The notes under the pieces are model-generated. The model was given only the letters and a program-made list of their open reading frames with translations, was not told where the DNA came from and did no database searches. From positions 480,001 through 544,000 of the forward strand of contig CAVYNY010000011.1 in NCBI GenBank assembly GCA_963769935.1: 64,000 nt of DNA, given 5' to 3'. The DNA comes from an uncultured delta proteobacterium (GTDB lineage Bacteria > Desulfobacterota > Desulfobacteria > Desulfobacterales > JAFDCJ01). This document shows positions 57,815 through 64,000 of this stretch, one piece after another (positions within the stretch are counted from its first letter, which is position 1; every line of letters starts with the position of its first letter). The translations under genes were made by a program, and so were the position numbers.

Positions 57815-58263
57815 AGTTTCATATAAGCACGGCCACTGGCCGCGAGCGTCCAGTCTGATCGGTAAAAGAAACTTTTAGGAGCTCGGGCACAATTGGATTT
57901 AATATCACACCCACTTCGTTAGAGCTCACAGAGACCGCAGAGAGCATTTTTCTTTCGCCGCAGGCGATTGTAAACCCAGACCTCAGCGATCTCTGAGCGC
58001 TCTGTGTGAGATGTAATTTCACACGAGCCGGGCCGCTGGCCAAAAAGACGGCCAGATTAATCGAGAAAGAAACTTTTGGGAATTCGGACACAGTTGGATT
58101 TACTATCACGCCCACTTTCAGGCTTCGCTCTTCGAGCTACGACCCGACAAGCCGTTAGAGCTCACAGAGACCGCGGAGAATATTTTTCTTTCGCCGCAGG
58201 CGGCTGCCAACCCTTACCTCTGTGACCTCTGAGCGCTCTGTGTGAGATGTAGTTTCATATAAG
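57815..58263. repeat. Tandem duplication of a roughly 200-bp composite unit delimited by three 13-bp repeats
   Basis: AGTTTCATATAAG (57815), AATTTCACACGAG (58015), AGTTTCATATAAG (58251); both units share GTTAGAGCTCACAGAGACCGC, TTTCTTTCGCCGCAGGCG and CTCTGAGCGCTCTGTGTGAGATGT. Confidence 0.9.
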
Positions 58264-60308: not shown

Positions 60309-62054
60309 ATGGAGCACACTGCAACCTGTGAACACATATTTGAGTCGATGGGCAGCGGCGTGGTAGCCACCGATGCGTCCGGCAGAATTGTTTATATTAA
60401 TCGGAAGGCATCGGATATGGTCAATTCGACCGCCGCCGCCGCTTTAAACGATGATATTCGTCATCTGCTGCCGGAGGCGCAACGTCTATTCGACGCATGC
60501 CTGCGATCCGGAGAAATCCAACTTGGTCAATATGTGCCGCGAAAAAACAGCAAATTTGTCGTGGACGCGGCGCCAATCAAATTCGAGGACCATATTGAAG
60601 GTATTGCTGTTTCTCTGCATTATCTGGATGATTTTGAGCATGCGCTGCGTCACTCGGAGGGGTATTTAAAGATGAGCAAACAGCTCGATGCCATTTTTAA
60701 GGGCACTTCAGACGGCCTTTGGGTTCACGACAACCATGGCAGAATAATCAATATCAATACCGTCTCCGAAATGATTAACGGCATCCGAGCCAAAGATGTT
60801 GTCGGCAGGAGTATTTATGATTTGGTCGAGGAAGGTATTTTGGAAGGCATCGTTACCCCGGAGATTTTGCGAACCAAACGCCAATTCAGCACCCTGTCCA
60901 CCGTCAAAAAAACAGGCAAACGGGTCCTCGTGACCGGAACACCGATTTTGGATGAAGACGGCAATGTCTCGCTGATTGTAAGCAACGAGCGGGATCTGAC
61001 GCATTGGAATGCTGTCAAAGAAGATTTGGAGCGCAGCCGCAAAGTTGCCGAAAAATATAAGGATGAATTCGAGCAATTGAGCCGGCTGGAGTCGGGACAG
61101 CATCAAATCGTGGCTGAAGGCAGGCAGATGAAGCAAGTTCTGCGCATCGGCATGAAACTGGCTCGGATGGGCGCTTCCAATATCCTGATTCAGGGCGAGT
61201 CGGGCACCGGCAAAGGGCTGCTCGCAAAATTCATACATGATAACAGCAGACGAAAACCGAAACCCTTCATACCAATAAATTGCGCCGCCCTGCCGGAAAG
61301 TCTTCTGGAAGCAGAACTTTTCGGATATGAAAAGGGCGCCTTCACCGGAGCCAGGGAACAGGGGAAAATCGGTTTGTTTGAATTGGCCCACGAAGGAACG
61401 CTTTTTCTGGATGAAATCGGGGATCTTCCTCTCAGCGTGCAGGCCAAACTGTTGAAATATCTAGATGACCAGGAAATCCTGCCCCTCGGCGGCATTCAGC
61501 GCAAAAAGGTAGATTGCACCATCATCGCGGCGACCAACCAGGACCTTGCCCAACTGACCCGGCAGAAGCGTTTCCGGCAAGATCTATTTTTCCGGTTAAA
61601 TACGTTTAAGGTGCAGATTCCGCCGCTGCGCAGCAGAACCGGAGACGTCCTGAAAATGACCGAGTATTTCCTCCAAAGGTACAATGGCGAATACCAGGTG
61701 CAGCGACGTATCACCCCTAAGGCCATGTACCGGCTGCAGGCGTATCCATATCCCGGCAACGTGCGGGAATTGCAAAATATTATCAGAGAAGCCGTGGTAT
61801 TAAGCGATAATGACGTGCTGGATGATTTCCTGGCCGACAACATCGGGAGCGGGGAAAAAATAGTCGGAAATGAATTTAAATCCCTGACGGGCCTGCCGTA
61901 TCCAATCCGCTTGCAGGATAAAATCCAGTATCTGGAAAAAGAGATTTTGTCGGATGCATGTATTCGCTTCGGATCAACCAGAAAAATTGCCCAGAACCTT
62001 GGGACCAGCCAAAGCAGCGTCATGCGCAGGATGAAGAAATACGGCCTGGCATAA
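60309..62054 (+). CDS. Sigma54 enhancer-binding protein, PAS-PAS-AAA+ with TyrR-type HTH (RocR-like architecture)
   Basis: Two PAS-like segments, GESGTGKG, EAELFGYEKGAFTGA, YPGNVRELQN, GSTRKIAQNLGTSQSSVMRRMKKYGL. Confidence 0.95.
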   Translation: MEHTATCEHIFESMGSGVVATDASGRIVYINRKASDMVNSTAAAALNDDIRHLLPEAQRLFDACLRSGEIQLGQYVPRKNSKFVVDAAPIKFEDHIEGIAVSLHYLDDFEHALRHSEGYLKMSKQLDAIFKGTSDGLWVHDNHGRIININTVSEMINGIRAKDVVGRSIYDLVEEGILEGIVTPEILRTKRQFSTLSTVKKTGKRVLVTGTPILDEDGNVSLIVSNERDLTHWNAVKEDLERSRKVAEKYKDEFEQLSRLESGQHQIVAEGRQMKQVLRIGMKLARMGASNILIQGESGTGKGLLAKFIHDNSRRKPKPFIPINCAALPESLLEAELFGYEKGAFTGAREQGKIGLFELAHEGTLFLDEIGDLPLSVQAKLLKYLDDQEILPLGGIQRKKVDCTIIAATNQDLAQLTRQKRFRQDLFFRLNTFKVQIPPLRSRTGDVLKMTEYFLQRYNGEYQVQRRITPKAMYRLQAYPYPGNVRELQNIIREAVVLSDNDVLDDFLADNIGSGEKIVGNEFKSLTGLPYPIRLQDKIQYLEKEILSDACIRFGSTRKIAQNLGTSQSSVMRRMKKYGLA

Positions 62055-62063
62055 TTTAATCAA

Positions 62064-62197
62064 AATCGGTTCAATACAAATCTAACATTTTGAATTTAAA
62101 CAATATATGGAGATATAAAATAACGATTCATAATCGGTTCAAATTATTTAAATAATTTTCAATAGGTTAATCTATTGAAGAGTCTAGGCCGGTTCAA
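62064..62197 (+). promoter_or_regulatory. Candidate enhancer sites
   Basis: AATCGGTTCAA at 62064-62074 and 62132-62142, CGGTTCAA at 62190-62197, in AT-rich DNA upstream of a sigma54 motif. Confidence 0.55.
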
Positions 62198-62270
62198 CCT
62201 GATTCTCCTGGCGCTGCCTTATTATAAATAACATACTAAAATTATTAAAAATAAATAATACATAAAATCC

Positions 62271-62286
62271 TGGCTCTAATTTTGCT
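62271..62286 (+). promoter_or_regulatory. Sigma54 (-24/-12) promoter of the amidinotransferase operon
   Basis: TGGCTCTAATTTTGCT has GG-N10-GC spacing, about 70 bp upstream of the start codon. Confidence 0.8.
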
Positions 62287-62357
62287 TTACCTATTTTGAT
62301 TAAATTCGCTTAACCAGATACCAGTTTTTTTATTCCCGGATAAAAATGGAGGCTAAG

Positions 62358-63503
62358 ATGCAAGAGCAAAACATTCATCGCAAAACGATTGTAAACTCCT
62401 GGAACGAATGGGATCCGCTAAAACACGTCATCGTCGGCCGCGCCGATGGGACCATGGTTCAGGCGCCGGAGCCGGCCATTGAACGCAACTGGCCTGATCA
62501 TGGATTTCCGCTGGGAACCTACGGTCCCCTGCCCAAAGAAATGGAGGCCAAAGCCAACGCCCAGCTGGATAATTTTGCCAAGCTGCTGGAAAGCCGGGGA
62601 ATCCGCGTCGACCGGCCGACCCCACTGGATTTCGGACAGGAGGTGCGCACGCCGGACTGGGAGCAGAAGTCCATGTTCGGGTGCATGCCGCCACGGGACG
62701 TTCTGTTGACTGTCGGCCATGAAATCATTGAAGCAACCATGTCGCAACGGGCCCGCTGGTATGAATATCTTTGTTATCGGCCGTTGCTGGAGCAATATTT
62801 CAGGGAAGATCCCAGCTTCAGGTGGGAAGCGGCCCCCAAACCTCGGCTGAATGATGATTCTTACAAAAAAGACTACTGGCGTGAATGGGAGAAGAAAAGC
62901 AAGGAAGAGAAGGAAAAAGCGATTTATGGCCGTGATTGGGTTCTAACGGAAAAAGAGCCCTGCTTCGATGCCGCTGATATCGGCCGGGCCGGCAAAGATC
63001 TTTTCGTCTATCATTCATCGGTAACCAACAAAGCCGGGCTCGAATGGTTACGGCGGCACTTTCCGAATCATCGCATTCACCCGGTTTGGTTTTACGAGGA
63101 AAATCCGATTCACATCGATGCGACGTTCGTCGTCCTGCGGCCCGGTTTGGCGCTCAGCAATCGTAAACGAAAACCTCTAACACCCAAATTAGTCGATTTT
63201 TTCGCAAAGAATGACTGGCAGATCGTCGAATGCGCCAAGCCCGCCCTGGACACCTATCCCCCCCTGTCGTTCTGCAGCCCCTGGCTGTCGATGAATACGC
63301 TGATGCTGGATTCCAAGACCATCTGTGCCGATGCTCAGGAAAAAGACCAGATGGAGCAGTTCGACAAGCTCGGATTTGAAGTTATTCCCGTGGAGTTTGC
63401 CGATGTGAGTGCTTTCGGCGGCGGTTTGCATTGTGCCACGGCGGATGTTTACCGGGAGGGCGAGTGCGTGGATTATTTCCCTCATCAGATAGAGGGGTTT
63501 TAA
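62358..63503 (+). CDS. Amidinotransferase of the L-arginine:glycine amidinotransferase (AGAT) type
   Basis: VNSWNEWDPLKHVIVGRA, PPRDVLLTVGHEIIEA, APKP, EPCFDAAD (Asp), NPIHIDATF (His), WLSMN, FGGGLHCATAD (Cys). GGAGG favours the ATG at 62358 over 62346. Confidence 0.92.
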   Translation: MQEQNIHRKTIVNSWNEWDPLKHVIVGRADGTMVQAPEPAIERNWPDHGFPLGTYGPLPKEMEAKANAQLDNFAKLLESRGIRVDRPTPLDFGQEVRTPDWEQKSMFGCMPPRDVLLTVGHEIIEATMSQRARWYEYLCYRPLLEQYFREDPSFRWEAAPKPRLNDDSYKKDYWREWEKKSKEEKEKAIYGRDWVLTEKEPCFDAADIGRAGKDLFVYHSSVTNKAGLEWLRRHFPNHRIHPVWFYEENPIHIDATFVVLRPGLALSNRKRKPLTPKLVDFFAKNDWQIVECAKPALDTYPPLSFCSPWLSMNTLMLDSKTICADAQEKDQMEQFDKLGFEVIPVEFADVSAFGGGLHCATADVYREGECVDYFPHQIEGF

Positions 63504-63514
63504 AAACGCTGAAA

Positions 63515-63731
63515 GGTTCAAAGGTTAGAACGTAAGAAGGTGAGAGGGTAAGAGGGTAGGAGGGTAGGAGGGTAGGAGGGTAGAGAGAGTTGAGAAGTTG
63601 AGGATTGCGGGATTCATCGGAAATTGCGTCAAAATAAGATCGATTAACCATATTTATTCGTCATTAGAAAATAATCAGTCGCCAATTTTGACGAAGATAA
63701 CCTTGAACCCCGAACCTCTGAACGCTGAACC
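63515..63731. repeat. Octamer (GAGGGTAG) tract with outer GGTTCA/TGAACC heptamer arms
   Basis: GAGGGTAA GAGGGTAG GAGGGTAG GAGGGTAG...; distal AACCTTGAACCCCGAACCTCTGAACGCTGAACC. Confidence 0.75.
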
Positions 63732-63749
63732 CAAAAAAGGGAGGCAACC

Positions 63750-64000
63750 ATGGCATTCAATCTAAGAAACAGGCATTTTTTGAAATTGTTGGATTTTACA
63801 CCCGGGGAGATTAAGTTTTTGCTGGAACTTGCGCTCGATCTGAAAAAGGCTAAGTATGCCGGGTTTGAGCAGCAGCGCCTGGTTGGCAAAAATATTGCGC
63901 TCATTTTTGAAAAGTCCTCGACGCGAACCCGGTGTGCCTTTGAAGTGGCGGCTTTCGATCAGGGGGCGCATGTGACATACCTGGGGCCGTCCGGATCCCA
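63750..64000 (+). CDS. argF: Ornithine carbamoyltransferase, N-terminal part (runs off window; resembles catabolic ArcB types)
   Basis: GGAGG then [38 protein letters not shown]...[42 protein letters not shown] is the carbamoyl-phosphate motif. Not in the ORF track because it has no stop in the window. Confidence 0.93.

Follow-up and report, generated by a model that had tools for sequence, protein, structure and literature searches.

The end of a 64,000-nucleotide stretch of contig CAVYNY010000011.1 (assembly GCA_963769935.1) from an uncultured member of the Desulfobacterales, hereafter called the window, contains the first genes of a putative operon. In this operon a gene for an AGAT-type amidinotransferase precedes genes for ornithine carbamoyltransferase (OTC), carbamate kinase, an ArcE-family arginine synthetase and a 4-aminobutyrate (GABA) transaminase, GabT. 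The row is a real, conserved operon and encodes a variant of the arginine synthetase pathway, to which an amidino-carrier cycle probably adds 4-guanidinobutyrate as a substrate. The reading that we favour, at slightly better than even confidence, is that of an energy-yielding cycle in which the amidinotransferase works in reverse and loads ornithine with an amidino group taken from a guanidino acid, most likely 4-guanidinobutyrate.

Genes beyond position 64000 are given in the coordinates of locus L001 (window position equals L001 position plus 60000), and all lie on the plus strand. The amidinotransferase gene (385 aa, 62346..63503, +), an upstream gene for a PAS-PAS sigma54-dependent activator and an OTC gene had been named in the original prediction, and the open reading frame list together with profile and PDB matches bears out all three. 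The OTC gene (333 aa, +) occupies 63750..64000 within the window and L001:3750-4751 in full, ending at 64751 in continued numbering. It is followed by the genes for carbamate kinase (L001:5073 to about 5997), a P-loop protein of a 446-aa type assigned to the ArcE family (L001:6023 to about 7366) and GabT (L001:7534-8799), then by two unrelated genes, a GSA-aminomutase-like class III transaminase gene (from L001:11055, by profile matches) and an rRNA operon, the last called from sequence likeness and RNA depth. Carbamate kinase and arcA had been proposed as genes to look for past 64000. The kinase gene is in the row, whereas arcA was found neither there nor elsewhere in the genome, which is 96.7 % complete, and the ArcE-family gene is present instead.

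Both the kinase and the arcE genes are split in the assembly by single extra bases (L001 5742/5743, 6470/6471, 7013/7015 and 7062/7063). These frameshifts are most likely assembly errors, since nearly identical strains, in contigs of both DNA and RNA runs, have one base fewer at each of these places and the genes of relatives are intact. The spacer between the amidinotransferase and OTC genes (63504..63749, strandless), about 242 nt here, includes an 8-nt tandem repeat (63515-63582) whose length differs among strains; judged by strain comparison, the spacer is probably a recent insertion, as a close strain has 13 nt instead.

The OTC exceeds the cut-offs of PRK04284 (570 vs 515) and TIGR00658 but scores well below that of the model for putrescine carbamoyltransferase (289, cut-off 500). 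The carbamate kinase, scored on the L004 copy, passes TIGR00746 (383 over 358). GabT exceeds the cut-off of TIGR00700 (553 vs 507), and its 12 best PDB matches are all named GABA transaminases (E 7e-133, vs 1e-65 for a named ornithine transaminase), which by sequence places it with the true GABA transaminases. The P-loop protein has no Pfam or NCBIfam match and a weak match to cDPG synthetase, and is named 'putative cDPG synthase/GTPase' in the Atlas. It was tested as the unbroken copy of L004, to which the three long pieces in the genome of the window are 87-92 % identical. The top folds for its model (pLDDT 88) were cDPG synthetase and LpxK, including 4EHY, and a haloarchaeal homologue with 50 % identity adjoins arcC. 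In the indexed passages of PMC11032458, which list Desulfosarcina among the carriers of ArcE, arginine synthetase is described as a distant cDPG synthetase relative with an LpxK-like P-loop core, encoded near arcB or arcC. The gene is assigned to the ArcE family by model fold, names and context, rather than by alignment to the characterised TK2200.

The best PDB match of the amidinotransferase is human AGAT (E 3e-87), followed by HsvA, SxtG and StrB1. The protein has the motifs NEWDPL, FDAAD, HIDATF and GGGLHC, and residues D118, D208, H256, D258 and C363 align to D170, D254, H303, D305 and C407 of human AGAT (for the numbering of the catalytic triad see the indexed text of PMC3684758). The first four are kept in all 16 members of its subclade and C363 in 15, the remaining sequence ending early. 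Its AlphaFold model (pLDDT 77.6) gave TM scores of 0.81 to AGAT, 0.55 to arginine deiminase (ADI) and 0.54 to DDAH. No NCBIfam model matched, TIGR01078 included, and the score with PF02274 (21.2 bits) was under the cut-off of 22.8. According to the model, fold and catalytic residues are those of AGAT, and the fold is nearer to AGAT than to the deiminases or DDAH; the earlier claim of intact AGAT motifs in place of those of ArcA stands. The homologue group is large (3607 matches at E 1e-60), and many members are named 'glycine amidinotransferase'. Five amidinotransferases (P0026, P0028, P0035, P0061 and P0119) are misnamed 'serine/threonine protein kinase' in public records, a propagated misannotation.

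In the proposed cycle, 4-guanidinobutyrate and ornithine would be converted to GABA and arginine through an amidino-enzyme at Cys363. ArcE would then convert arginine, ADP and Pi to citrulline, NH3 and ATP, OTC would split citrulline with Pi into ornithine and carbamoyl phosphate, and carbamate kinase would form ATP, NH3 and CO2. The net yield for each guanidino group would be 2 ATP, 2 NH3 and CO2 with ornithine acting catalytically, whereas hydrolysis to urea gives no ATP. GabT, joined in relatives by aldehyde:ferredoxin oxidoreductase, would carry GABA to succinate as an electron donor. The amidinotransferase would be an adaptor into the ArcE route, because the characterised ArcE accepts L-arginine only: TK2200 takes neither agmatine, guanidine nor D-arginine, and a Keq of 10.1 was measured for the conversion of arginine, ADP and Pi to citrulline, NH3 and ATP (PMC11032458, indexed text). 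The core of OTC, kinase and ArcE would burn arginine too, and the OTC would double as a biosynthetic enzyme. Reverse transfer onto ornithine, feeding a deiminase, OTC and carbamate kinase, had been the central proposal of the original prediction. The downstream genes and their linkage lend strong genomic support to the transfer and to the last two steps, but the deiminase is replaced by ArcE; with a synthetase-family enzyme between arginine and citrulline, 2 ATP rather than 1 would be expected. The catabolic direction is suggested by the type of activator, by importers and catabolic neighbours, by the redundancy with the argG/argH route and by the lack of product-using genes.

The order amidinotransferase, OTC, arcC, arcE and gabT is found at L001 and at four other loci (L002, L004, L005 and L114), so that the synteny suggested for the first three genes is conserved. 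The named relatives with 80-90 % identity come from Desulfobacterales-type metagenome-assembled genomes (MAGs), an Olavius symbiont and one Anaerolineales MAG. The sample of the order comprises 401 genomes: 50 encode a homologue and 207 encode arcE. The latter is present in 41 of the 43 genomes having this enzyme group and in 166 of the 358 others, a count that leaves out of the group seven genomes with only 35-41 % identical, biosynthetic-looking homologues (of these only G333 is in the tree); when all 50 homologue genomes are counted, the numbers are 45/50 vs 162/351. The closest ArcE group (at least 80 % identity to the query) comprises 24 genomes; among the 21 neighbourhoods judged, 19 adjoin an amidinotransferase gene, one is a contig end and one (G188) is without. 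Many of these 19 amidinotransferases belong to subclades with no more than 35-47 % identity to that of the window. The arcE-linked amidinotransferases span subclades with 80-90 %, about 60-66 %, 44-47 % and 35-38 % identity to that of the window, and such linkage across distinct subclades argues for function over shared ancestry alone. In a phylum-wide sample none of 300 other genomes matched at 1e-30, the gene being met only in the order-level sample, and no annotation or marker genes were found near the plasmid matches H1 and H2.

Other arrangements were seen among more distant homologues. A large group of metagenome contigs (L148-L183, 56-58 % identity) pairs the gene with one for an M24 creatinase-like hydrolase, with no arcE nearby. 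At L073:6753-9757 two tandem 432-aa amidinotransferases, of a type with Trp in the pocket, alike in their start and in their score against the query, follow OTC, arcC and arcE. At L118:381-11563 amidinotransferase, OTC and arcE follow repeated 285-aa proteins and carbamoyltransferase-like genes, possibly a ureido or guanidino catabolic module. The amidinotransferase of a Bradyrhizobium plasmid (L190:2941-4417) adjoins a SugE-type SMR gene, which we take to belong to the guanidinium exporter family.

For the phylogenetic tree 135 proteins were extracted, of which 132 remained after duplicate removal; matches that contained stops or X, or whose alignment fell short of 300 residues (among them L057, L071, L072 and L077), were left out. 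FastTree supports were used, and the tree was rooted on a StrB1-like protein. The outgroups were homologues standing in for StrB1, HsvA and CyrA, and AmtA and SxtG themselves lie outside the tree. A total of 126 of the 132 proteins separate from the outgroups with support 0.978, so the tree called for in the original prediction sets the group apart from StrB1-, CyrA- and HsvA-like proteins and does not include AmtA. The subclade of the window consists of 16 proteins (support 0.965). In 13 of them a GabT gene lies no more than 6 kb away on the same strand, and two of the three misses are contig ends. In G255, G366, G010 and G324 arcE is elsewhere in the genome, beside another amidinotransferase paralogue in all three loci examined of the four, and L106 keeps a remnant of arcE.

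The substrate is suggested by neighbouring genes and by the pocket. In the sister pair L040/L041 a ureohydrolase gene lies directly upstream, its product having guanidinobutyrase as best PDB match (E 1e-83, vs 8e-60 for agmatinase). GabT homologues elsewhere in the order adjoin importers and aldehyde:ferredoxin oxidoreductase-like genes, and polyamine ABC importers, putrescine transaminase or aldehyde oxidoreductases are encoded near the gene in L004, L005, L006, L007 and L114. At L007:5947-9111 there is a 1053-aa fusion of putrescine aminotransferase and aldehyde:ferredoxin oxidoreductase. At L191, L196 and L208 the GabT homologues are beside genes which, by sequence likeness, resemble corrinoid/methyltransferase and aldehyde oxidoreductase genes, suggesting demethylation of N-methylated relatives of GABA. 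Human AGAT accepts GABA to form 4-guanidinobutyrate (PMC9772407), and its reaction is reversible (PMC3684758), as stated in the indexed passages of these papers.

In the pocket the human N300, R322 and S355 positions are kept (R275 corresponds to R322 and S311 to S355), while M302 is replaced by Ile and S354 by Cys. R275 is Arg in all 16 subclade members and Trp in 14 of 14 members of a symporter-linked clade, and no Arg was seen in the R322 loop of HsvA. In the pocket of AGAT roles are ascribed to R322, S354 and S355, with R322 presumably binding a carboxylate. If it does, an acid donor would be expected for the enzyme of the window and an amine donor for the Trp clade. The residue is highly conserved (PMC10092499). 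As to a preference for glycine or guanidinoacetate, the N300 and R322 positions are kept, M302 is Ile and the neighbouring genes point to GABA; guanidinoacetate or taurocyamine, earlier put forward as donors, fit these neighbours less well than a C4 guanidino acid, 4-guanidinobutyrate. The motif NPIH, once thought to hint at acceptor specificity, says little and was rejected as a marker, being variable (14/16 in the subclade, PMH in near relatives).

The genome of the window has argG, argH and carB, so ArcE is not required for biosynthesis. No arcA, agmatine deiminase, pyruvoyl arginine decarboxylase or phosphagen kinase was found in it, and arcA was not over the cut-off in any of five relatives. 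It encodes three amidinotransferase paralogues (100, 61 and 52 % identity) and three ureohydrolases, one of which is 82 % identical to that of L040. The 61 % and 52 % paralogues are at G000:C22:199611-200735 and G000:C11:164070-165245; the former precedes the gene of a TRAP-type transporter, and argG, carB, pyrB-like and acetyltransferase genes lie in the same region. At C18:251614-253053 the genome has a putrescine aminotransferase gene that is not fused to an oxidoreductase gene; a polyamine ABC importer and two genes resembling carbon-nitrogen hydrolases accompany it.

The activator gene (60309..62054, +, 581 aa), the likely regulator of the operon, encodes two PAS stretches, Sigma54_activat and HTH_50, and is in the equivalent position in L002, L004, L005 and L105. 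Its top NCBIfam model, below the cut-off, is PrdR, presumably a catabolic regulator. In the spacer between the activator and amidinotransferase genes, three enhancer-like sites (62058..62197, +) have the core CGGTTCAA, at 62067, 62135 and 62190; a triple 8-mer with at least four G/C was obtained in 0 of 2000 base shuffles of the spacer. The predicted -24/-12 promoter, TGGCTCTAATTTTGCT at 62271..62286 (+), is one of four strict matches to TGGC-N7-TTGCW within the window and has the form TGGC-N7-TTGCT. It is kept in all three relatives having the same activator (L002, L004 and L005) and was not seen upstream of L003, L006, L007 and L008, all four without the activator. GAGTC-N5-CGGTTC is invariant across the four aligned promoters. 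The promoter and the repeated sites had both been pointed out before, and both are upheld: a -24/-12 element, upstream repeats and an adjoining enhancer-binding protein gene together predict a sigma54 operon. A scan for sigma70 promoters and terminators found neither above chance (13 promoters vs 9.7 expected, 9 terminators vs 13).

RNA-library data came from four runs of one sediment study, as contigs of a close strain whose depth cannot rank genes. One contig spans amidinotransferase, OTC and kinase, the first spacer being 13 nt, and a second spans arcE and gabT. These contigs are compatible with one expressed operon, and the spacers of 20-36 nt in L002, L039 and L059 agree with this; a single transcript is not established, since such libraries can contain DNA. 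The ends of two contigs fall some 19-20 nt upstream of L001:2315, close to where a sigma54 start is predicted. A third contig runs across the promoter, however, and for this reason no start site was assigned.

Several observations weigh against the reverse cycle with 4-guanidinobutyrate. Gene order cannot fix the direction, as every step is reversible, and the direction and the substrate, and with them the flux, are deduced from genomic context. The linkage counts overstate the association, since related genomes do not provide independent cases and the locus that supplied the query was itself a linked one. Among the 351 genomes without any amidinotransferase 162 have arcE, and more distant arcE loci have one nearby in 0 of 7 cases, although G351 (L057) does possess one. 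In G188 the row is OTC, arcC, arcE and gabT with no amidinotransferase on that contig, and the relatives with 56-58 % identity adjoin the M24 hydrolase gene instead of arcE. Within the subclade all three of OTC, kinase and arcE adjoin in 5/16 and any of them in 10/16, and the gene of L008 stands alone. GabT homologues are common in the order (138/401 genomes), the L040 ureohydrolase passes agmatinase cut-offs too, and arginine or ornithine would require an R322-type residue in any case. The genome has no other OTC, and the same holds for 4/5 relatives. A sole anabolic OTC had been named in advance as counting against the idea; it weakens a purely catabolic reading and leaves the cycle possible.

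The alternatives are taken here in falling order of probability. The first, unlikely and still the best placed of them, is the same reverse cycle with another donor: agmatine (giving putrescine and then GABA), guanidinoacetate, 3-guanidinopropionate or taurocyamine. The potABCD-type importers and the putrescine transaminase encoded close to the amidinotransferase in relatives, the lack of a detected agmatine deiminase in the genome, the naming of HsvA as a polyamine amidinotransferase (PDB title), the L040 ureohydrolase, which also resembles guanidinopropionase, and a pocket nearest to that of the glycine-using human AGAT would all fit. The fixed neighbour, however, is GabT rather than putrescine transaminase or a glycine or taurine pathway, and the subclade has Arg275, whereas the clade beside a strong agmatinase has Trp. 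Rather less probable is a pathway in the same direction serving chiefly salvage of arginine and nitrogen, with arginine made from ornithine in one step and ATP secondary. Salvage would suit the sole OTC, the paralogues near argG, carAB, pyrB-like and acetyltransferase genes, the pairing with OTC only in L039, L059, L060 and L107, and the 56-58 % relatives. It accords poorly with carbamate kinase and arcE in the same row, with a PAS-type sigma54 activator resembling PrdR, whose catabolic role we assume, and with GabT, which implies use of the carbon skeleton.

A forward, biosynthetic cycle, a shade less probable again, would have kinase, OTC and ArcE spend ATP on rebuilding arginine and the amidinotransferase guanidinate GABA from GabT, or some other amine, the product being an osmolyte, a nitrogen reserve or a metabolite. 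The characterised amidinotransferases named in the indexed text of PMC3684758 and PMC12623156 are used in the forward direction, and ArcE is reversible in vitro and in vivo, but its Ks for ammonium salt is about 0.1 M (PMC11032458, indexed text). Arginine is already supplied through argG, argH and carB, a phosphagen kinase was not found in the genome, and the neighbours are importers, hydrolases, transaminases, demethylases and oxidoreductases. That the amidinotransferase has become an arginine deiminase or guanidino hydrolase in place of ArcA, as the original prediction allowed, is very improbable. It takes the usual place of arcA, and the Cys-His-Asp chemistry is common to the superfamily, but ArcE already covers this step, a hydrolase would short-circuit the ATP gain of ArcE, and both the AGAT-like fold and the profile scores speak against a deiminase. 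A secondary-metabolite or toxin cluster with a self-resistance OTC is largely excluded by gene content. Such a cluster would fit the biosynthetic roles of StrB1, CyrA, SxtG and HsvA and a weak match of the GSA-like transaminase to guanitoxin GntE (score 246, cut-off 525), yet no polyketide synthase, nonribosomal peptide synthetase, tailoring or other toxin-type genes follow downstream, the OTC has no second copy in the genome, and the tree separates the group from the biosynthetic outgroups.

The preferred cycle resembles several known systems in part. The ArcE-ArcB-ArcC pathway of Thermococcus kodakarensis (indexed text of PMC11032458 and PMC13260591) likewise combines an ArcE-family enzyme, OTC and carbamate kinase, has no arcA and is expected to give 2 ATP per arginine; here, in contrast, genes for an amidinotransferase and GabT stand in one row with these three, behind a predicted sigma54 promoter. 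Human AGAT/GATM (PDB 1JDW) and cyanobacterial CyrA/AoaA share the fold (TM 0.79-0.81, 41 % identity), the catalytic Asp/His/Cys and the N300/R322/S355 positions; the enzyme of the window differs at M302 and S354, its context suggests the reverse direction and a longer acceptor, and no creatine or toxin genes are nearby. StrB1, HsvA and SxtG belong to the same family (33-37 % identity in structure alignments) but come from biosynthetic clusters, and StrB1 and HsvA, represented by stand-in homologues as SxtG is not, lie on separate branches. Pseudomonas guanidinobutyrase GbuA, which converts 4-guanidinobutyrate to GABA and urea ahead of GabT, has the predicted substrate, product and downstream transaminase in common with the operon; the difference is that transfer, unlike hydrolysis, would save the energy of the amidino group in the form of 2 ATP. 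In the anaerobe Actinobaculum massiliense (01647-01650: arcA, arcB, arcC and AGAT) an amidinotransferase also adjoins OTC and carbamate kinase, a likeness in gene order, and that cluster uses ArcA with 1 ATP. All four proteins were more than 8-fold up in a urinary biofilm, and the cluster was read as polyketide synthesis in the indexed text of PMC6314084; by analogy we regard it as an independent parallel.

For guanidino acids, hydrolysis to urea is given as the usual fate (PMC12623156), a route on which the energy of the amidino group is lost. The amidinotransferases of bacteria are regarded mainly as biosynthetic, toxin or antibiotic enzymes (PMC2242806), as far as the indexed passages of both papers go. 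In the indexed text of PMC11032458 'amidinotransferase' does not occur and 'amidino' occurs once, in a supplement legend on the creatine pathway; 'amidino' is absent from that of PMC13260591, and neither the latter nor PMC12371840 has, in its indexed text, anything on a link between amidinotransferase and ArcE. No paper on an amidinotransferase feeding ArcE or the ADI pathway was found in the full-text literature searched, in which subscription journals are mostly uncovered; the nearest was that on the A. massiliense cluster (PMC6314084). Gut bacteria reportedly degrade guanidinoacetate by an amidinotransferase; such a report was not met with in that literature and, if real, would be a precedent for the reverse direction.

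Elsewhere in the window, at 57865-58257, between response regulator and sensor kinase genes, a 105-nt hairpin-forming repeat occurs twice (88 % alike) with 52-nt companion repeats. Its 41 genome matches of at least 80 nt suggest a REP/MITE-like family.

It is about an even chance that anaerobes use substrate-specific amidinotransferases more generally as plug-in adaptors, which would feed guanidino compounds of the environment into a loop like a reversed urea cycle, forming arginine from ornithine that is used again and gaining two substrate-level ATP per guanidino group; the operon of the window would then be the 4-guanidinobutyrate module, the symporter-linked clade with Trp in the pocket the agmatine module, and three paralogues in one genome would stand for three donors. 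If the proposed cycle is true, it would be a new route of substrate-level phosphorylation and a source of ammonium for sediment sulfate reducers and worm symbionts. It would also give a large group of amidinotransferase proteins a catabolic role, and would account for the frequent presence of an amidinotransferase gene flanking the arginine-specific ArcE.

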